Source: a virus
Length of the DNA stretch: 64,000 bases
Direction: 5' to 3' (one strand)
Virus genome (UHGV): UHGV-0120889
A program made the translations under genes and the position numbers. The notes under the pieces were generated by a model, which saw nothing but the letters and a program-made list of their open reading frames with translations, ran no database searches and was not told the origin of the DNA. This document shows, one piece after another, positions 415 to 43,926 of the stretch. Position 1 is the first letter of the stretch; each line of letters opens with the position of its first letter.

Positions 415-1326
415 TTATTTTCCGTTAACTTTGTTGTAGTTTCCCTGCTCAGATGGGACTATGGTAGAAGGTCTTCCATATTCCTGATAATACCAATCCG
501 CAGCAGATTGAGTAACACCGTTTTCATCCGTCCACATCATAGATTTGTAGGGCTGCCACTCTTCTGCGGCATTTGTTGATGCAGTGTCTGCAAATGCCCC
601 TGTGTCCCTCTTGTTACCTACGTTACTGCCATTCTTACAGTCGTTGACAGCACCTTTTTGCTGGGTCTTGCCTACTTTCTTAGGGTTGCTGTATACAGTT
701 GCATTAACAACCTTGTTCAAGTAGAATGTGCGGAACTCTGTAAGTTCTACATCAAACACCATCGCAGCACCTTCACCAACAGACTTGTTGGCAGAAAGGC
801 TGGTTATGATGTAGTTCTCAAGGAGTCTCTCCTCGGTAACCAAAGAAACCAACTGGCGCTTATTAATGATCTCAGTCAAAGCCTCCAGTGCAGCGCCTGG
901 TCGCATAGACGCTGCAGGGTTTTTAGAGTCAGTATTCCTGTCAATGTAGTTTTGCTCATAGATTATATGTGGTGATGTATTTACCCTACCAGTAAAAGAA
1001 AATACACCATCTTTAATTACAGCGTGGTCTGACAGGGTAGATTTATCTTCCACCGCAAACCCAGTCTTATCAACAGAATGTTTGAAAGAGTAATTCTCAA
1101 CCTGATCGAAGATGATGGCAAGATCGTTAGTAAAGTTTTTACCCTTCATCTCCGTATTGCGACCACCATAGTTAAGACCGCTGACAAACATAGTGTACTT
1201 TACATCGCTTTCAGTTTGCTGTTCTGCCTTTTCAGCCTTTGGAGATTTAACCTCTTGAGGCTTGTACAGGTCTTTTTCATCAACTATATTGCTTGGCATA
1301 ACCTCTCCAGGACACTCCGATACCAT
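415..1326 (-). CDS. putative distal tail/baseplate protein (303 aa)
   Basis: ORF immediately downstream of tape-measure gene; position-based call only. Confidence 0.45.
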   Translation of the reverse strand: MVSECPGEVMPSNIVDEKDLYKPQEVKSPKAEKAEQQTESDVKYTMFVSGLNYGGRNTEMKGKNFTNDLAIIFDQVENYSFKHSVDKTGFAVEDKSTLSDHAVIKDGVFSFTGRVNTSPHIIYEQNYIDRNTDSKNPAASMRPGAALEALTEIINKRQLVSLVTEERLLENYIITSLSANKSVGEGAAMVFDVELTEFRTFYLNKVVNATVYSNPKKVGKTQQKGAVNDCKNGSNVGNKRDTGAFADTASTNAAEEWQPYKSMMWTDENGVTQSAADWYYQEYGRPSTIVPSEQGNYNKVNGK

Positions 1327-1364
1327 CTAAATATTGTATCATAAAATAGCCGTTTTTACAACAC

Positions 1365-1392
1365 CGATAAAATAAAGGGGGCCGGAGCCCCC
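1365..1392 (-). terminator. rho-independent terminator-like hairpin downstream of tape-measure gene
   Basis: GGGGGC-CGGA-GCCCCC stem-loop (1377..1392) followed on minus strand by U-rich tract (plus 1365..1376). Confidence 0.55.
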
Positions 1393-1405
1393 TATGTGCT
1401 GTTTA

Positions 1406-3742
1406 TTACCAAAGATCTGTTGACATAAAGTTAATATCTTTGTTATTCTCCCACTCAAGTTTTGCATCAAGTATTTTGCTAAACTCACCCTCATCTATTG
1501 AAATCGTGATTTTCCCATCACTAATCTCTAAAGGTAGCATTTCCATAGTTCTTAATTGAGAAGCAAAACCAGGGCCACCTGGCAACGGAAAAGTACCGCC
1601 CGGTAAGGTGTCCAAAGGATTAACAAATCCGTTACCTCCCGATATGATATCTTTGCGAATCATATCGCTGATAGTATCCAGCTGCTGATTTCTTTCACTT
1701 AGTGGGTTGTAACGGTCATTAAATAATTCCCCGGCGCTTAGTATTGTACCGATAATACCCAGCTTACCGAGCAGACCAACTTTGCCACCAGGTGTCTTGA
1801 GGCCACCTCCCCCTTTTCCTGCCGGAGCGCCACCACCAGATCCTTCTGTAGTAGCGGCACCTGCTACTCCAGCTGCACCCCTTAAAGATCTAAGGTATTT
1901 AAAGGTTTTTACAAGCATAGATACCATGACAAAACCTTTTGTTAGGGCGTTGACGACCAGCATGATGGCAGCAGCAAACCCTGCCCATTTAGCATAGCTA
2001 AAGGTGTCATGAAGCTCTTCAGAATATTCCTTCGTCTTAGCTGTTATGAACCCCCATTTAATCCCCCATTCAAGGAAAAACATGCGGATCTTGACTATAG
2101 TGTTGTTCAGTTCACCAACTACCCAGTTAAGGCCTCTCACAAACCCGCTAACAAAATCACCAGAGGCATCCCACACAAATTGCAGAGTCTCACCAGTGCG
2201 GATTAGTGTATAATAGAACTCTGTTAGTTCGTCAGACCAACGGGTGAACAGTTTCTGACGAGTCAGTTCGATAAAGGTTTTCAGTCTGTTTTCTGCCAGC
2301 ACGTTAGACTTCTGCATTCTTTCATAACCAGCTGCAGATGCCTCGTTCATGTACTTAGCCACATACTTCATGATCTTGGCTGTTTTAACCTCACCTTTCT
2401 TCATCATGTCCATGAACTGATCCATGGAAAGTTCAGAAAGACCAAAAGCCTCTTTGGTGGCCTTGATAAAAGGTTCGTATGCACCAGGCAATGCTTCAGC
2501 AAGTTGTTGCTTCAGTTCTTCGGACATTACCTGTCCTTTCCCGAGCATCTGTTGGATTGCCATAATACCGCGCTGGTATTTTACCTCATCGGCACCATAA
2601 GCAGCAGCATACTGGGAGTATGCAGAAAACAGCTCATGCACTTCCTGATTTGTCATCTGGTTTTTGGCGTTTACCGACATCTGGGCGTAACCTTGAAGAC
2701 CAGATTTGAGATCAAAACCAAGACGCATAGCCTCTTGCTGGACAAACGCAACCTCACTGTTGGCTTTGTTTGGATCTCCAGTGACAGCAGTAAGAGCAGC
2801 ACTTGCCCCCTCCATCATGTGACCGGATCTGTTAACCGCAGCAAATCCAGAAAAAGCTGTATACGCAGCTGTTGCATTAATAACAGATCTACGTAAGTCT
2901 CTCATGGCATCGCCTAGTGTAAGCGTTTGGCTGGTGGCGCTTTTAAACCCAGACTGCAGCGCTGACAGGTGGGCGTTAAAGGTTGACTTCTTCATCTCCC
3001 CGCGAGCAAACCTGGACTCTAACTCTGAGTATCCTGGCAAGCTTCCACGGAATCCGGCCCCATACTTGGCAGAAAGTCTTATCGCGGAGTTGTAGAGGTG
3101 GGTTCTCCTTGCCTCACGATCCGACATAAGCCTATTATCCATACCAGCTTTACTGTCTCTTCTTAGCTGTCTATGATAACGATTCATAGCGGCTGTCTGA
3201 GCTTTCACAAGGTTAGGGTCGGAAGCCACACCACCCATATTAGGGTTACCTGGGATATATTTGAAAGATTTGGCATTAGCCAAAACTCTTGCCTTAGGTG
3301 CCTTATAACCACCGTAAGACACTGGTGCAGATTTGGCAGCCTTTTTGGCCTCTTTAGCTTGCTGCTGGTAGAACTTACGCATCCTAGCCATTTCTGGATT
3401 TTTAGCGGTAAGATTACCTACAGCTTGTTTACGTCTCGCATTCTCCCTACGTTCTATTGCAGCCCTTACTGCAGCCTCTTTCTTGGCCTGTGCTACGCTC
3501 TCTCTGTGCAGTTTAGCATTTGCCTGAGATTGCTGTCTGGCAACCCTCTGCATTGTCTGCTGGGTTTTAACAGCTACCGCCTGCCATCTACTCATGGGGT
3601 TGGCTGAGTTAAAATCCTCGCCCAGTTTCCTGAACTCCCTCCCAATACTGCGAATTTTCTCTACAGCTTTTTTGTAGGAGGAGTTCTCTATCTCAAAGCC
3701 AATCTTGTTGACTGTTGTGGCAACTATTTTGTTTGTAGCCAT
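1406..3742 (-). CDS. tail tape measure protein (778 aa)
   Basis: Longest ORF of the tail module; Ala/Gln/Lys-rich helical N-terminal half, Gly-rich block (GSGGGAPAGKGGGGLKTPGG); preceded by chaperone-like ORF pair. Confidence 0.85.
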   Translation of the reverse strand: MATNKIVATTVNKIGFEIENSSYKKAVEKIRSIGREFRKLGEDFNSANPMSRWQAVAVKTQQTMQRVARQQSQANAKLHRESVAQAKKEAAVRAAIERRENARRKQAVGNLTAKNPEMARMRKFYQQQAKEAKKAAKSAPVSYGGYKAPKARVLANAKSFKYIPGNPNMGGVASDPNLVKAQTAAMNRYHRQLRRDSKAGMDNRLMSDREARRTHLYNSAIRLSAKYGAGFRGSLPGYSELESRFARGEMKKSTFNAHLSALQSGFKSATSQTLTLGDAMRDLRRSVINATAAYTAFSGFAAVNRSGHMMEGASAALTAVTGDPNKANSEVAFVQQEAMRLGFDLKSGLQGYAQMSVNAKNQMTNQEVHELFSAYSQYAAAYGADEVKYQRGIMAIQQMLGKGQVMSEELKQQLAEALPGAYEPFIKATKEAFGLSELSMDQFMDMMKKGEVKTAKIMKYVAKYMNEASAAGYERMQKSNVLAENRLKTFIELTRQKLFTRWSDELTEFYYTLIRTGETLQFVWDASGDFVSGFVRGLNWVVGELNNTIVKIRMFFLEWGIKWGFITAKTKEYSEELHDTFSYAKWAGFAAAIMLVVNALTKGFVMVSMLVKTFKYLRSLRGAAGVAGAATTEGSGGGAPAGKGGGGLKTPGGKVGLLGKLGIIGTILSAGELFNDRYNPLSERNQQLDTISDMIRKDIISGGNGFVNPLDTLPGGTFPLPGGPGFASQLRTMEMLPLEISDGKITISIDEGEFSKILDAKLEWENNKDINFMSTDLW

Positions 3743-14308: not shown

Positions 14309-15397
14309 TTAGATAAAACGCTTGAACATAGAAGGTGATGAGATTGATGGAATCACACAAGGAAGTGCTACTTCCTCTTTCTCCAGGAAATTAATAGCAG
14401 AAGCTACACAGTCAGCCCAGTCGTCTTTTCTGTTAAATGTTGATCTTTCCCCGTTGAATTTTTCAAGTTCAGTCAGAAATGCTTCCAGAGTATCAGGATG
14501 GAAACTGGATTTTACAATCCTCACCATTCCTTGTTGGGCAAGATTGGCAAAAGGTGAGAACCTTGTCAGTTTAGATTTGTTGGAAGGCATTGGGTCTTCT
14601 TCAACCCTAAACCCTTCGGCAAGCAAGGATCTGGAGGAGGTTAAGAACTCACTCTTACCTGCCTGACCGGGGTCCACAGAGAATACGATTATACAATCAT
14701 CACCATCAAACTGCGCCTGTTTCCTGATGATCACATCTCGTTCACCAGCCTTTTTACAGAACTTGCCTTCTAGACCTGTGGAATACCTCCCGTCATCCAC
14801 GTTCTCAGGACAATAATCACCGGACAGGTAATAAAAGCCGTCGCTATCTTTACTTACCTTAACACTGGCGGTAAAGTCAGGAAATTTATTACCGGAAGTT
14901 CTCTCGGTTCCTGCCTTATCCCATGCCCTGCAAGATACTGATCCAAGGGGTACTCTATCGGCATCACGAAGGAAAGATCTTTGAAAATAGTTTGCGCCCT
15001 CAGGCTTTGCAAACCAGTTACCATGAAGAAGCTGAGCTTTTTCCAGTTCCGGCAGACCTTCAAGGAAAGCAAGGTATTCTGGGTTGTCTCTTAAGCAAAC
15101 AGGATTATCGAATATTGTTGCGCCTATAAACGAGAATGACAACGGTCTTGGCTTGATCTCCACACCAAGTCCGTTAACCGTGGTGTATTTCTCTATCAAC
15201 TCTTCTTTAGAGTCCCCCCAGATAAATTCACCGTCGCGTCGGATAAAATATCTTTTCTTACCGCATTTCTCCGGATCTGGATACCCTTCATCGTCCAACC
15301 ACCACCTAACCAGTTTGGCAAGCATGTGTTCTGAATCGGGGTTACAGCTGATAACCATTCTTGATGGATACTTTGACTGAGATCGCAGACGAGACAT
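14309..15397 (-). CDS. terminase large subunit, C-terminal (nuclease) segment; 5' boundary approximate (exon 2)
   Basis: Same strand, immediately downstream of the ATPase segment after a ~340 bp ORF-less gap; frame open upstream of first Met to 15433. Confidence 0.75.
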   Translation of the reverse strand: MSRLRSQSKYPSRMVISCNPDSEHMLAKLVRWWLDDEGYPDPEKCGKKRYFIRRDGEFIWGDSKEELIEKYTTVNGLGVEIKPRPLSFSFIGATIFDNPVCLRDNPEYLAFLEGLPELEKAQLLHGNWFAKPEGANYFQRSFLRDADRVPLGSVSCRAWDKAGTERTSGNKFPDFTASVKVSKDSDGFYYLSGDYCPENVDDGRYSTGLEGKFCKKAGERDVIIRKQAQFDGDDCIIVFSVDPGQAGKSEFLTSSRSLLAEGFRVEEDPMPSNKSKLTRFSPFANLAQQGMVRIVKSSFHPDTLEAFLTELEKFNGERSTFNRKDDWADCVASAINFLEKEEVALPCVIPSISSPSMFKRFI

Positions 15398-15746
15398 CAG
15401 ATAGTCTATCTGCTCCCATTCGAATTGTGTCGTTTATGTTCGGGCAAGGTCGCTAGTCTTGCCCCGCCATTTTCAGGCAGCTGCATGTCTCCATGCAGAC
15501 CAGACTATATCTTATAAGCGACAACAACCGCTTATCCTCCCGTTTCGAATCGCTTGATTCTACGTCTTTCGACTAGTCGTTGAACGTTCATCCTCTCGGA
15601 TGCTTCGCTGCGGATTATCTAAATTAACACACTGTTACCATACCTTCGATCTCTCTTCGAAGCCTCTATCATGTTACCATGACAGGTTGGTGGTATTAAT
15701 AGTAAAGATTTCCCCGCAATTAGGGAGGTTTTACGAGAGCTACAAA
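15398..15746 (-). other. ORF-less intervening sequence inside terminase large subunit gene (putative self-splicing intron)
   Basis: No ORF in any frame; multiple perfect hairpins (CTGCATG/CATGCAG, CTTCGA/TCGAAG, GGGCAAG/CTTGCCC); separates Walker-A/B ATPase part from C-terminal part. Confidence 0.5.
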
Positions 15747-16175
15747 TTAACCCTCATCGAAGCAAACCATGGTGTACTCAAGCCCTTGATGGTTAAGCTT
15801 ATCTTGTACATACTCCATGTGGCAGTATTTTACAACAGCTCCCTTTTTGCTTCTATCCCACTTGCCAGTGTTCGGATCAAACCGTGGAAAAATGAACTTA
15901 TGATCCTTCTCTCTGAACTTTGGCTTAATGTTTTCAGGCAGATCACTATAAATAGCTACCGCTTTAGGCCATAGTCCACCCTCACCTTCCAACTGCGGGG
16001 TTGTTCTTCGGAACATAACCACAGAGCTGTGGGGGTCATCAATAATTTTAAGTGGCATCAATTGCAAGAGGAACGACTTGCCAGACCCTGCGGCACCGCC
16101 GATTACCAAAATATCTGCATCGTTTTCGAGGATCATCTTCTGCTTTTCAGAACACGGTCCGTAAATCTTAGACAT
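15747..16175 (-). CDS. terminase large subunit, N-terminal ATPase segment (exon 1; 3' boundary approximate)
   Basis: Walker A VIGGAAGSGKSF and Walker B-like VCFDE motifs characteristic of large terminase ATPase domain. Confidence 0.8.
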   Translation of the reverse strand: MSKIYGPCSEKQKMILENDADILVIGGAAGSGKSFLLQLMPLKIIDDPHSSVVMFRRTTPQLEGEGGLWPKAVAIYSDLPENIKPKFREKDHKFIFPRFDPNTGKWDRSKKGAVVKYCHMEYVQDKLNHQGLEYTMVCFDEG

Positions 16176-17278: not shown

Positions 17279-17355
17279 TGGTCTCCACGGAGTGATTCGA
17301 ACACTCGACCTCCTGATCCCAAATCAGGCGCTCTACCAAGCTGAGCTACGCGGAG
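17279..17355 (-). tRNA. tRNA-Pro (anticodon UGG)
   Basis: Manual cloverleaf: acceptor CTCCGCG/CGTGGAG, D-arm GCTC..GAGC, anticodon loop UUUGGGA, T-loop TTCGAAT, encoded CCA. Confidence 0.85.
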
Positions 17356-17366
17356 TATTTATTATT

Positions 17367-17441
17367 TGGTGGCCCTGGGTGGAATTGAACCACCGTCTGG
17401 CGATTATGAGTCGCTTGCTTGAACCTTCCAGCTACAGGGCC
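17367..17441 (-). tRNA. tRNA-Met (anticodon CAU; could be Ile-lysidine type)
   Basis: Acceptor GGCCCTG/CAGGGCC, anticodon loop CUCAUAA, T-loop TTCAATT, encoded CCA. Confidence 0.8.
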
Positions 17442-17442
17442 A

Positions 17443-17518
17443 TGGTGCTGATGGCAGGACTTGAACCTGCAACCTATTGATTACAAATCAATTGCACTAC
17501 CAATTGTGCTACATCAGC
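17443..17518 (-). tRNA. tRNA-Thr (anticodon UGU)
   Basis: Acceptor GCTGATG/CATCAGC, D-arm GCAC..GTGC, anticodon stem ATTGA/TCAAT loop UUUGUAA, T-loop TTCAAGT, CCA. Confidence 0.85.
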
Positions 17519-17524
17519 AAAAAA

Positions 17525-17623
17525 GGTGCTAGGTGATGGAATCGAACCACCTATGTATTCAACGACTACCTCGTCTATTTTCAGGATTAAAAATCCTCGC
17601 CCTTGCCAAAGGGCTTACCTAGC
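17525..17623 (-). tRNA. atypical tRNA-like gene (possible anticodon UUU; ~30-nt extra arm)
   Basis: Acceptor GCTAGGT/ACCTAGC, D-arm GCCC..GGGC, T-arm GGTGG-TTCGATT-CCATC present, but 99 nt long with oversized variable region and no encoded terminal A. Confidence 0.3.
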
Positions 17624-17721
17624 TCAGTATGTTGACCATGTTGCTAGTCGGCGATGACGACTGTAACATTTGATAATCCGGTTCTGCTTCCGGCTTTCGC
17701 TTAATTACAAGGTCAACAATA

Positions 17722-17812
17722 TGGCTGAGGGTAATGGAATCGAACCATCATCGAGTCATCCTCAACGGGACGGTTTTCAAGACCGCTTGAGCACCATTGC
17801 TCCCTACCCTCA
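17722..17812 (-). tRNA. tRNA-Ser (anticodon UGA), type II
   Basis: Anticodon arm GCGGT-CUUGAAA-ACCGT, long variable arm, T-loop TTCGATT, acceptor TGAGGGT/ACCCTCA, CCA. Confidence 0.75.
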
Positions 17813-17926
17813 TTTATAAACAATACTGATAATGACACTGATTTTCGAGCAGTTAGTGACTAGTATAAACGACGATAAATATCAATGCCATTATCTGTAT
17901 GATTTATGCATTTAAAACTATAAATT

Positions 17927-18013
17927 TGGTGGGGAGTGGTGGAGTCGAACCACCCGAGTCGTAATGACAATAGATTTACAGTCTACACCGCTACCTCTAC
18001 GGGATAACTCCCC
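17927..18013 (-). tRNA. tRNA-Tyr (anticodon GUA), type II
   Basis: Anticodon loop CUGUAAA and variable arm TGTCATTACGACTCG closely resemble bacterial tRNA-Tyr; acceptor GGGGAGT/ACTCCCC, CCA. Confidence 0.85.
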
Positions 18014-18017
18014 AATT

Positions 18018-18092
18018 TGGCACCCCGTACTGGACTCGAACCAGTGTCAACGGCTTAGAAGGCCGCTGCTTTATCCACTAAGCTAACAGGGC
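18018..18092 (-). tRNA. tRNA-Arg (anticodon UCU)
   Basis: D-arm GCTT..AAGC, anticodon arm GCGGC-CUUCUAA-GCCGT, T-arm ACTGG-TTCGAGT-CCAGT, CCA. Confidence 0.8.
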
Positions 18093-40730: not shown

Positions 40731-41009
40731 ATGAGCTGCGAAAAATCTTTTTTCATCATCATTTACGGTAAGGATAACTGCCCACATTGTGTCAGAGCAA
40801 AAGAATTTGCAATCAGCAAAGGTCTGCCTTTTGTATATAAGACACTTGGCGAGGGCTACACAAAAGAAGAGCTTATTGAGAAGTGCAGTCCAATCGTCCC
40901 CCGAACGTTGCCGCAGATCTTCTTAGAAAGCGATCTTGACAGTATCCATATAGGCGGTGCCGACGATTTCATCTCTTTTGTTAAGAATGGTTTTGGAGAG
41001 AAAAAGTGA
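40731..41009 (+). CDS. glutaredoxin/NrdH-like redoxin
   Basis: CPHC active-site motif in 92-aa protein between nrdB and nrdD. Confidence 0.65.
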   Translation: MSCEKSFFIIIYGKDNCPHCVRAKEFAISKGLPFVYKTLGEGYTKEELIEKCSPIVPRTLPQIFLESDLDSIHIGGADDFISFVKNGFGEKK

Positions 41010-41869
41010 AAGTTGTAAAACGGGACGGTAGAGAAGAGTTCTATAACGGAATTAAGGTGATCAAGGCGGCAGAGTCCGCCTTACTTGAGTCTGGACATAC
41101 TGAAGAAGAAGCTTACCGGATCGCTTGTGCGGTTAATGAAGTTGTTGCTAACAATCTGCCAACCGACCAGTGCACGATCTCTGTAAAAAATATCCATATC
41201 CTTGTTGAAGATGCTCTTATGGATATGGGTTTAAAATGTGCAGCCAGAGAATACATCCAGTATAGACAGACAAGAGATAATAACAGAGAGGCAGGTGGAA
41301 AACTACTTGCAGATATTAGTGGCTTCTTGGATCGAACTTGTGATGAATTTACAAAAGAAAACGCAAATAAGCCCACTAATCATGTACACACTCATCGTGA
41401 CCTGCTTGCAGGCATCCTTAGCAAACACCTTGCATCAACACAGATCCTGCCAGACCGTGTTTCAGAAGAGCACAATAAAGGCTTCATCCATGTGCATGAT
41501 CTTGACTACTTGATCAGTCCGTTAACAAACTGTTGTTTGGTAAATTATCCAGATATGTTGGAAAACGGATTCAACATTGGCAACGCCCATGTCAGTAAGC
41601 CGAAGTCAATAGGGGTTGCAACAACAATCCTTAGTCAAATCTCTAGCGCGGTAGCTAGTGCTCAATATGGTGGTCAGACTATGAGCCATATTGATCATTA
41701 TCTGGCACAGTATGCTGAAGCAACCTATGAGAAGAACCTTAAATTTTGCCAGGAACATTGGTTGCCGGATGCTGAAACTGTTGCAATGCAAATGACAGAT
41801 AAAGATGTATTTGACAGCATGCAGACTTTGCTCTATCAAATCAATACGTTAACCTCTGTCAACGGTTAA
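41006..41869 (+). CDS. nrdD: anaerobic ribonucleoside-triphosphate reductase NrdD, exon 1 (3' boundary approximate)
   Basis: ATP-cone start MKVVKRDGREE, IHVHDLD and NCCL motifs; ORF ends where intron-like sequence begins. Confidence 0.7.
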   Translation: MKVVKRDGREEFYNGIKVIKAAESALLESGHTEEEAYRIACAVNEVVANNLPTDQCTISVKNIHILVEDALMDMGLKCAAREYIQYRQTRDNNREAGGKLLADISGFLDRTCDEFTKENANKPTNHVHTHRDLLAGILSKHLASTQILPDRVSEEHNKGFIHVHDLDYLISPLTNCCLVNYPDMLENGFNIGNAHVSKPKSIGVATTILSQISSAVASAQYGGQTMSHIDHYLAQYAEATYEKNLKFCQEHWLPDAETVAMQMTDKDVFDSMQTLLYQINTLTSVNG

Positions 41870-42717
41870 CAAACTGGCCGTTGTAAAACTCTCCTAACCT
41901 CATAAGAGGGGTCGGTAAATCCGGCTAACGGGGAACGCTAAGGCGAAAGCTATGCCAATCCCGTGACTAGTTCTTACAGGAGTTGGAACGGTTGTAACGA
42001 CTAACGAAAGGCAGAGATGCTTGACAAACATTTCTGAACCAAGTAGTGTAGGGGTTAGTTGAAATACTAACTTCGAAATGGAGAGGCTCTATGAAAAAGA
42101 TCATTCTTAATGGTGAAGAATCGAACTATGTGATTGATGAGGTTGGAAACGTATACGGAAAACGTGGAATGCTACACCCAATATTGTGGGGAGGTTATGG
42201 AAAAGGTAACAAGCATGTTAAACGCCGTTATATGTACTCTTTCAACCACAAAGGTAAAAAGATTCGAATCCAAACCTCAAGGGTTGTTGCCTTGTATTGT
42301 TTGCCAGATGTCCCAGAAGACCCTGAAAACTGGGAAGTGAATCATAAAGATGGCAATACATTGAATGATCATCCGTCTAACCTAGAGTGGGTTTTGCCGG
42401 AAGATAATAAGAGACATGCTTTCCGAACAGGACTTTGTCCAGGTAAGTGCTATAGGAAAGTGCAGGCATACAAAGGGAAAATCTTGGTGGGTGAATATCC
42501 TTCACTCTATGCCTGTGCAAAAGCCTTAAATTTGAACGTAGGTAACGTTCACAGGGCTATCGAAGGAAATGCCGAAGGTAAGCATCTCACAATAAAGGGT
42601 TATTATCTTATTGAAGTAGAGTAAGAGATAGTCTGGCCCTGTGGAAACACAGGGAGGAGACAGCAGACTCCATTCATCACATTAAGTTTAGGACTAGATA
42701 CCTCGGTCTTTGGTAGA
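41870..42717 (+). mobile_element. putative group I intron in nrdD carrying an HNH homing endonuclease gene (boundaries approximate)
   Basis: ~850 bp interrupts nrdD between N- and C-terminal halves; contains free-standing HNH ORF; flanking non-coding parts are structured. Confidence 0.55.
42091..42624 (+). CDS. HNH homing endonuclease (intron-encoded)
   Basis: Classic HNH motif EVNHKDGNTLNDHPSNLEWV; located inside nrdD intervening sequence. Confidence 0.75.
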   Translation: MKKIILNGEESNYVIDEVGNVYGKRGMLHPILWGGYGKGNKHVKRRYMYSFNHKGKKIRIQTSRVVALYCLPDVPEDPENWEVNHKDGNTLNDHPSNLEWVLPEDNKRHAFRTGLCPGKCYRKVQAYKGKILVGEYPSLYACAKALNLNVGNVHRAIEGNAEGKHLTIKGYYLIEVE

Positions 42718-43926
42718 ATGATTACCAAAAACTACTTGAAAGTCCACAAAATGGGTCTTGGTGAAGAACGTATCACACCTGTGTTCCCTAAAGTGCTGTT
42801 CTTCCTGGAAGAGGGTGTCAACATGAACCCTGGGGATCCTAACTATGATTTGAAACGATTAGCTCTGGAATGCTGTGCAGAACGTATCTATCCTGACTTC
42901 GTATCTGTACCACTAAATAGAAAAGTGACAGGCTCGACAGATGGCAAAGTAACTAGCATGGGTTGCAGGAGTTTTCTTAGCAAATACAATGACTTGGAAA
43001 CAGGCGAGGAGAAATACCTTGGCAGATTTAACTTAGGCGTTGTTAGCCTTAACCTGCCAATGATTGCGGCAAAAGCTAAAACGGAAGGTGTTGATTTCTT
43101 TGCAGTTCTTGACGAATACCTGGATCTTGCATACGAGGCTCACCTTGTAAGGGTTAATCGTCTAAAAGGGACAAAGGCAGGGCAGAACCCTATCATGTGG
43201 TGTGAAGGCGCTCTTGCTCGCCTGGACCCTGAAGAGAGTATTGATAAACTCTTCTATGACGGGTACGCTTCCATCAGTATTGGGTATATTGGTGTGTATG
43301 AAACCTGTCAGATTTTGGGCAGAGAGGGTGACAAGGCTTTAGCTCTTGGAATCCTTCAGCACATGAGAGATGCTTGTGAGCGACACAAGAAGGAAAGTAG
43401 ACTAGCGTTTAGCTTGTACGGCACCCCTTCTGAGAGTCTATGCTATAAAGCTGCAACCTGTCTGGATCGTGAATATCCTGAAGTGTTGAAGCACGAGCAT
43501 GAATATCTCACCAACAGTTTCCATCAGCCAGTATGGATCAATAGCTCTCCTTTTGATAAGTGGGAGTATGAGGAAGGTTTTGCTATGATCTCCTCTGGTG
43601 GCAACATCGGATACGTAGAGACACCAAATCTGAAAAACAACTTAGATGCTTTGGAAGCTCTTGTTGATTTCGGATATAAACACATTATGTATTTTGGTAT
43701 TAACCAACCTGTGGATAAATGTCTCAAGTGTGGTTTCTCTGGTGAGTTCAGTGCAACAGCTAAAGGCTTTGTATGCCCAGAGTGTGGAAACCATGAAGAG
43801 GGAACGATCAGTGTAATTCGACGTGTGTCTGGATACCTTTCCAGTCCTAACTCCCGTCCTTACAATAAAGGTAAGCAAGCGGAAGTTATCGAGCGAGTTA
43901 AGCACTACGGAAGTTGTGGTTGCTGA
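42718..43926 (+). CDS. nrdD: NrdD exon 2 (5' boundary approximate; frame open from 42625)
   Basis: C-terminal zinc ribbon CLKCGFSG...CPECGN and glycyl-radical motif RRVSGYL. Confidence 0.7.
   Translation: MITKNYLKVHKMGLGEERITPVFPKVLFFLEEGVNMNPGDPNYDLKRLALECCAERIYPDFVSVPLNRKVTGSTDGKVTSMGCRSFLSKYNDLETGEEKYLGRFNLGVVSLNLPMIAAKAKTEGVDFFAVLDEYLDLAYEAHLVRVNRLKGTKAGQNPIMWCEGALARLDPEESIDKLFYDGYASISIGYIGVYETCQILGREGDKALALGILQHMRDACERHKKESRLAFSLYGTPSESLCYKAATCLDREYPEVLKHEHEYLTNSFHQPVWINSSPFDKWEYEEGFAMISSGGNIGYVETPNLKNNLDALEALVDFGYKHIMYFGINQPVDKCLKCGFSGEFSATAKGFVCPECGNHEEGTISVIRRVSGYLSSPNSRPYNKGKQAEVIERVKHYGSCGC

Follow-up and report, generated by a model that had tools for sequence, protein, structure and literature searches.

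A 319-nucleotide, ORF-less group I intron in the large terminase gene of a Vequintavirus-like genome

A structured gap between two terminase reading frames

The terminase large subunit (TerL) locus of the virus genome UHGV-0120889 raises the question of whether a protein encoded in two separate pieces is the product of one interrupted gene or of two genes. In a 64,000-nt stretch of this genome, referred to here as the window, a first-pass annotation made from the letters alone had described two minus-strand ORFs separated by an ORF-less interval with several perfect hairpins, and had read the interval as a small self-splicing group I intron lacking a homing endonuclease. Both ORFs appear in the ORF list at the positions given there, 15747..16175 (142 aa) and 14309..15397 (362 aa). 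The upstream one carries the Walker A motif GAAGSGKS and ends in ...MVCFDEG. The interval between them holds no sense-strand ORF of at least 30 aa and has several stop codons in each of the three frames. An intein was rejected, as stop codons occur in every frame, and so was a group II intron, no group II family being among the Rfam matches even at E values of up to 0.05. The hairpins are likewise present, with perfect stems of 7 bp (15442-15464, 15481-15498, 15514-15535) and of 6 bp (15644-15662). The predicted fold of the interval reaches -101.5 kcal/mol compared to -79.1 ± 5.1 kcal/mol for dinucleotide shuffles (z = -4.4), and 0 of 100 shuffles folded as well. The structured, ORF-less gap in TerL is real and goes beyond what is expected by chance.

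Over the TerL locus of about 2.2 kb, the window is 100% identical to the Escherichia phages slur16 (LN881727 / NC_028248) and slur12, of which slur16 is an rV5-like Vequintavirus, and 99.9% identical to JohannBauhin. More than 100 further rV5-like Vequintavirus phages show 96-98% identity to the window at this locus. The minus-strand gene order in the window is i-spanin, o-spanin, TerL and portal. Upstream of this lysis/terminase block lies a cluster of seven tRNA genes (17279..18092), namely Pro, Met, Thr, Ser, Tyr, Arg and one odd tRNA-like gene of 99 nt (17525..17623, minus strand). ARAGORN reported the latter as tRNA-???, with a four-base anticodon (atcc) and none that is assignable; it scores 35.5 bits against the Rfam tRNA model. 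As a side observation, 18 GenBank records (MG0656xx) titled 'Campylobacter phage', with C. jejuni as host, are 97-98% identical to E. coli Vequintavirus at the TerL locus, and their C. jejuni host label looks doubtful.

Splice sites and architecture of the intron

The covariance-model search that had been proposed as a check returned the group I intron family RF00028 at 84.3 bits (gathering score 50; E = 5.5e-20) over model positions 1-253, the match spanning 15759..15481 on the minus strand. The helices P3, P4, P6, P7, P8 and P9 could all be assigned, and the Rfam alignment shows conserved motifs in J6/7 and J8/7. At the 5' end, the exon sequence GAGGGU faces the guide GCUCUC. Because the conserved U·G wobble falls on U 15750, the 5' splice site is placed at 15750|15749, and the intron therefore opens with UAA, the stop codon of the upstream ORF; the TAA at 15749..15747 constitutes its first three bases. 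At the 3' end, the element terminates in ...AUAAACG. Read upstream of its ATG, the exon-2 frame is open back to TAA-ACG, and the omega G at 15431 is the sole G on a codon boundary that continues the frame of exon 1. The U·G site and this frame-restoring G together therefore delimit an intron of 319 nt, 15749..15431.

The element itself thus stands, with limits at 15431..15749 (319 nt) instead of the 15398..15746 (349 nt, given as "~340 bp") of the first-pass annotation, whose boundaries were wrong by 3 nt on the 5' side and by 33 nt on the 3' side. On the minus strand, TerL exon 1 (15750..16175; 142 codons, ending in ...MVCFDEG) contains Walker A and Walker B, is covered by Terminase_6N from residue 25 onwards and is collinear with the intron-less genes of FFH2 and EduardKellenberger. 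The ORF-less intron (15431..15749), with its UAA start and its terminal G at 15431, is delimited by Rfam and by intron-less alleles. Exon 2 (14309..15430; 373 codons plus stop) starts with TQFEWEQIDYLMSRL..., as the frame is open from ATG 15397 back to 15430; it thus begins 33 nt upstream of that ATG and gains the residues TQFEWEQIDYL.

Excision restores a continuous host ORF encoding a TerL of 515 aa. The protein junction reads ...VCFDEG|TQFEWEQIDYLMSRL... between residues 142 and 143, and a peptide across it is, for example, VCFDEGTQFEWEQIDYLMSR. By exact protein match, the spliced product is identical to the deposited 'terminase large subunit' of several Vequintavirus phages. The Pfam domain Terminase_6N covers residues 25-294 of the spliced protein and crosses the junction, and the insertion site lies one codon past the Walker B Asp-Glu. 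Conserved catalytic sites of this kind are typical targets of mobile introns.

Comparison with uninterrupted genes, also suggested earlier as a means to locate the splice sites, places them exactly and in frame within the same genus. Whole-gene alignments with FFH2 and EduardKellenberger each contained one gap, whose limits (gene nt 427-745) coincide exactly with those of the predicted 319-nt intron. Counting the stop, 516 positions of their products align with the spliced product, and of these 514 and 515, respectively, are matches. Six more intron-less Vequintavirus alleles, read at base level, have the identical junction (eight in all). The alignments with more distant uninterrupted TerL genes, from Rheinheimera Barba phages, Salmonella PVP-SE1 and Klebsiella KB57, run through the junction unbroken and without gaps, and their span is the same in query and record.

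The junction itself was read in 17 alleles at window positions 15750 and 15428 (loci L001-L005, L007, L008 and L015-L022 included). All nine intron-plus alleles, among them both ORF-plus and ORF-less forms, read GGT|intron|ACA, and all eight intron-minus alleles read GGC-ACG. Both differences are synonymous. The base at -1 is accordingly U in 9/9 intron-plus and C in 8/8 intron-minus alleles, U being the base required by the P1 U·G pair. The group I reading of the first-pass annotation was upheld by the full-length match to RF00028 together with intron boundaries and a frame, both placed by relatives, that agree with it. The feature in the window is shown to be a group I intron with exact boundaries and a restored frame.

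For the individual helices, all on the minus strand, intron position i corresponds to window position 15750 - i. In P1 (15735..15757), the internal guide UAGCUCUC is paired with the exon end GAGGGU and the intron bases UA, as seen in the Rfam alignment and by direct reading, and a P10 of 3 bp between exon-2 ACA and intron UGU is possible. A P2 helix, looked for between P1 and P3, is absent and is deleted in the Rfam alignment; only GUAAAA separates P1 from P3. The 5' strand of P3 (CCUCCC, 15723..15728) has its partner GGGAGG at 15541..15536, according to Rfam, the fold and the covariation table. Rfam and the fold also give P4 (UGCGGG / UCCGCA, 15609..15718), which encloses P5 together with its extension, about 85 nt long; the extension has one hairpin of 8 bp, capped by GUAA, and one of 6 bp, and forms an insertion in the P5 loop of the Rfam alignment. 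P6/P6a (GCG/CGU; CAUCC-GAGA-GGAUG) at 15584..15608 is seen in the fold, with compensatory changes in relatives. The 5' strand of P7 (GACUA, 15574..15578) and its partner UAGUC (15507..15503) are invariant in four related introns; by analogy, P7 would be the guanosine-binding helix. Between P7 and the 3' strand of P3, the fold and the covariation table place P7.1 (GUC-GAAA-GAC) and P7.2 (GAAUC-AAGC-GAUUC) at 15547..15573. The 22-nt P8 hairpin (AUAAGCG ... CGCUUAU, 15514..15535) was found by the hairpin search and in the alignment of relatives. It is followed by P9 (CUGCAUG-GAGA-CAUGCAG), P9.1 and P9.2 (GGGCAAG ... CUUGCCC), which together occupy 15442..15498 and were assigned from the hairpins and from comparison with the T4 td intron. 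P9.1 and P9.2 lie at 15478..15442, with AACAUAAACG after P9.2.

The combination of P7.1/P7.2 with P9.1/P9.2 is a hallmark of subgroup IA. All four extra helices of subgroup IA2 (T4 td / nrdB / sunY), P7.1, P7.2, P9.1 and P9.2, were found; since P2 is absent, we term the intron IA2-like and not strict IA2.

Covariation was analyzed in a set of four introns, in which the window intron was joined by three relatives confirmed by Rfam. One is RudolfGeigy's intron at the second TerL site, with 95.6 bits; another comes from Bacillus phage BSP9, where it lies at the gene for the ribonucleotide reductase alpha subunit and scores 94 bits; the third, from Pseudomonas jumbo phage 2PS, scores 84.2 bits. 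RNAalifold on the raw MAFFT alignment of the four Rfam-delimited introns gave 19 pairs with double changes, the 5' half of the window intron being misaligned because of its 85-nt P5 extension. After realignment with the extension trimmed, P7.1, P7.2 and P8 were still scrambled, and the helices were therefore tabulated by hand. Of the 57 core pairs in this table, 28 carry compensatory double changes and three a change on one side only; the remaining 26 are invariant, and there are no non-canonical cells. The table script placed two short strands at earlier chance matches, and the pair table is independent of those positions. With four sequences and a hand-curated table that leans to the proposed structure, covariation is no more than supportive; what is decisive is the Rfam score in combination with the exact junction.

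Expression of the interrupted gene and competing explanations

We consider it very likely that an ORF-less, T4 td-like group I intron of subgroup IA interrupts TerL and that one pre-mRNA is spliced to yield one TerL of 515 aa. The gene would be transcribed as a single pre-mRNA, in which the intron would fold into a P1-P9 ribozyme core. P7 would bind an external guanosine, which would attack the phosphate after U 15750 of the P1 U·G pair; the terminal G (15431) would next take the guanosine site, and the 3'-OH of exon 1 would attack after this G. The exons would thereby be ligated and the intron released, and the spliced mRNA would be translated into a single 515-aa TerL. A ribosome on unspliced RNA would halt at UAA, the first intron codon, and because of the position of this codon such RNA would give only the 142-aa exon-1 product. 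We infer the splicing chemistry from family membership and from the reactions well established for group I introns. TerL is essential for phages and the phage isolates are viable, which argues that splicing takes place in vivo. The same is argued by the TerL intron of phage CB7, which is spliced (PMC7344957).

A variant of this reading accepts the group I intron as real and has its splicing in vivo depend on helpers, be they RNA chaperones, a protein encoded at another locus or ribosomes positioned at the UAA. It would fit an intron that has no P2 and a P10 of only 3 bp, and UAA as the first intron codon is common to the introns of T4 td and of nrdD in the window (see below). Efficient splicing of td in vivo is reported to benefit from translation of the upstream exon. 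Set against this, the T4 td intron is a close structural relative and self-splices in vitro, as is well established, and the large P5 extension with its GNRA-capped hairpin could stabilise the core without protein. Overall, a dependence on helpers seems rather unlikely.

Far less probable is that the element is a decayed, non-splicing relic and that the terminase consists of two polypeptides, an N-terminal ATPase and a C-terminal fragment, which assemble in trans. An ATG is available at 15397 for such a second polypeptide, and the split of Aeh1 nrdA by a non-splicing insertion that contains an endonuclease, as cited in PMC7344957, offers a precedent. The GenBank and RefSeq entries of slur16 also list two 'terminase large subunit' CDSs. 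The slur16 records are alone in keeping two such CDSs (526..954 and 1376..2392 in the NC_028248.1 piece); the second one starts at an internal ATG (window 15325), and 35 exon-2 codons are therefore omitted. A two-polypeptide terminase is hard to reconcile with an intact catalytic core that scores far over the Rfam threshold, with a U at -1 that is retained in every intron-plus allele, and with a break one codon past the catalytic Glu of Walker B, within a single Terminase_6N domain. Furthermore, the first 11 codons of exon 2 precede any start codon and are conserved at the protein level in intron-less alleles. An artefact was also considered, since errors are a frequent source of split ORFs, and nothing was found in its favour. 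The probability that a frameshift or chimeric insertion arose in a continuous gene by a sequencing or assembly artefact is negligible, as the 319-nt insert is a recognisable ribozyme and no frameshift of 1-2 nt, recurs at the same position with 96-100% identity in dozens of independently sequenced phages, and has an 883-nt form at the TerL site in two IMG/VR contigs.

The spliced single-chain TerL is also in line with earlier literature and records. The first-pass annotation had noted that introns in terminase genes are known from other phages, which is documented, Vequintavirus included (PMC3606486, PMC6658697, PMC7344957). Under the heading 'Introns in terminase', Kropinski et al. 2013 described the TerL of rV5 in three segments with introns and acknowledged D. 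Shub for help in locating the intron (PMC3606486); in the GenBank record of rV5 (DQ832317), TerL is ORF64ABC. The genome announcement of LL12 reports a TerL broken by predicted intron sequences (PMC6658697), and terminase introns occur in LL-H and many other phages (PMC3606486, PMC8785237). Joined TerL CDSs are deposited in GenBank for rV5, for JohannBauhin, which belongs to the same species as slur16, and for RudolfGeigy, the latter two being BASEL phages. The TerL intron of the window is therefore already known and is the same as the published rV5 intron. The slur16 records LN881727 and NC_028248 should carry a joined 515-aa TerL CDS like their sister records. The intron is a further case of a well-behaved group I intron that interrupts a phage gene at a codon of the catalytic site, and it illustrates that a ribozyme-interrupted gene is recognisable from raw sequence.

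Alleles, mobility and comparison with known introns

A mobile (homing) intron encodes its own endonuclease. The window copy encodes none, in keeping with the description of the element as free of a homing endonuclease: there is no sense-strand ORF of at least 30 aa, and stops occur in all frames. Within Vequintavirus, the same TerL site exists in three states, which are empty, occupied by the 319-nt ORF-less form (window, JohannBauhin, rV5, RudolfGeigy) or occupied by an 883-nt ORF-plus form. The latter is found in 241Ecol014PP, HdK5, JES2013 and others as well as in two IMG/VR contigs, the only two found in a scan of IMG/VR for intron-plus junctions. By BLAST counts, which are approximate, roughly 120 records are Vequintavirus-like, and the intron is present at no less than 90% identity in about 75 of them.

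The 883-nt form resembles the window intron in its site, its core and about 98% identity outside P8. It differs in having another, longer P8 stem, the loop of which encodes a 196-aa Endonuclease_7 protein (PF02945, E = 2e-21). This ORF lies at 1170..1760 in loci L003 and L005 (HdK5), in the place of window P8 (15514..15535), and its stop codon is inside the 3' strand of P7. The protein is presumed to be the homing endonuclease. Because the P8 stem sequences are wholly different, the ORF-less form is no simple ORF deletion. At the gathering threshold, Rfam missed the ORF-containing introns in loci L003, L005 and L013, since the ORF splits the model; the forms in L003 and L005 were mapped by alignment.

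A second group I site, after TerL nt 743 (codon phase 2, about window 15114), is empty in the window and occupied in some relatives. The second intron of rV5 measures 979 nt and contains an HNH ORF, as does that of HdK5, and the second intron of RudolfGeigy (1578..1804 in L004; Rfam 95.6 bits) is about 268 nt long and ORF-less. In Escherichia phage Av-05 (Avunavirus), a segment adjoining TerL (701..771 in L014) is 86% identical to intron positions 107-176, and the 879-nt piece examined gave no Rfam match at the gathering threshold. The sequence similarity suggests a related terminase intron in another genus of the subfamily.

The synonymous differences linked to the junction would fit exon co-conversion during homing, a resistant target site, or both. 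A more specific reading, which we regard as possible but rather doubtful, is that the intron-minus allele represents an 'immune' homing site that is resistant to cleavage or, owing to C at -1, incompatible with splicing, and that the ORF-less slur16 intron may spread only when a co-infecting relative provides its Endonuclease VII-type enzyme in trans. If true, the TerL locus would offer three naturally occurring alleles (empty, ORF-less, ORF-plus) with which the dynamics of introns and endonucleases could be followed in a non-T-even phage. Having the three alleles side by side in one genus, together with junction-linked synonymous changes, is of mild interest in itself.

The window contains a second group I intron, which interrupts the gene for the anaerobic ribonucleotide reductase NrdD (41006..41866 and 42664..43926, plus strand, split by direct reading). 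Rfam, run with permissive settings, picked it up as a group I match at 42367..42654 on the plus strand, below threshold and with only 28.7 bits, because an ORF splits the Rfam model. The intron comprises 797 nt (41867..42663, plus strand), starts with UAA and has a terminal G. Its 5' splice site follows the U·G-forming CAACGGU, which faces the P1 guide GCCGUUG, and its P8 loop holds a 177-aa ORF with the Pfam domain HNH_3 (PF13392; 42091..42624, plus strand). An exact look-up of the full spliced NrdD product gave no match. The junction was then verified by tblastn, in which ...SVNG|QTPFITL... aligns ungapped with uninterrupted NrdD in most of 2,465 matching phage records.

Among known introns, that of the T4 td (thymidylate synthase) gene is of subgroup IA2 and, like the window intron, has the P7.1/P7.2 and P9/P9.1/P9.2 architecture. 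The two are about 82% identical in the 3' third of the intron, from the 3' strand of P7 to the 3' splice site, with an equivalent end point, and share the 5' junction GGGU|UAAUU, the intron opening in both with a UAA codon that is in frame. Their 3' ends are alike, reading ...GAACAUAA(A)CG in the window and ...GAACAUAAUG in td. The host genes differ. The td intron has a P2 and an ORF for I-TevI (GIY-YIG), whereas the window intron has neither P2 nor ORF and instead carries the long P5 extension.

By published description, the introns of CB7 and LL-H are, like that of the window, group I introns in TerL; both differ from it in containing endonuclease ORFs. CB7 belongs to Certrevirus, a sister genus within the Vequintavirinae, and RT-PCR showed its TerL intron to be spliced in vivo (PMC7344957). 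The intron in the large terminase gene of LL-H is described as group I in a citation given in PMC3606486.

The closest counterpart is intron 1 of rV5, JohannBauhin and RudolfGeigy, which is the same element as that of the window, with identical insertion site, length (319 nt) and intron ends. Unlike the window, rV5 and RudolfGeigy carry a second TerL intron. Over the 2201-nt locus, these three phages are 97.6-99.9% identical to the window, and the intron ends of rV5 intron 1 depart from those of the window by a single base, 12 nt before the 3' end.
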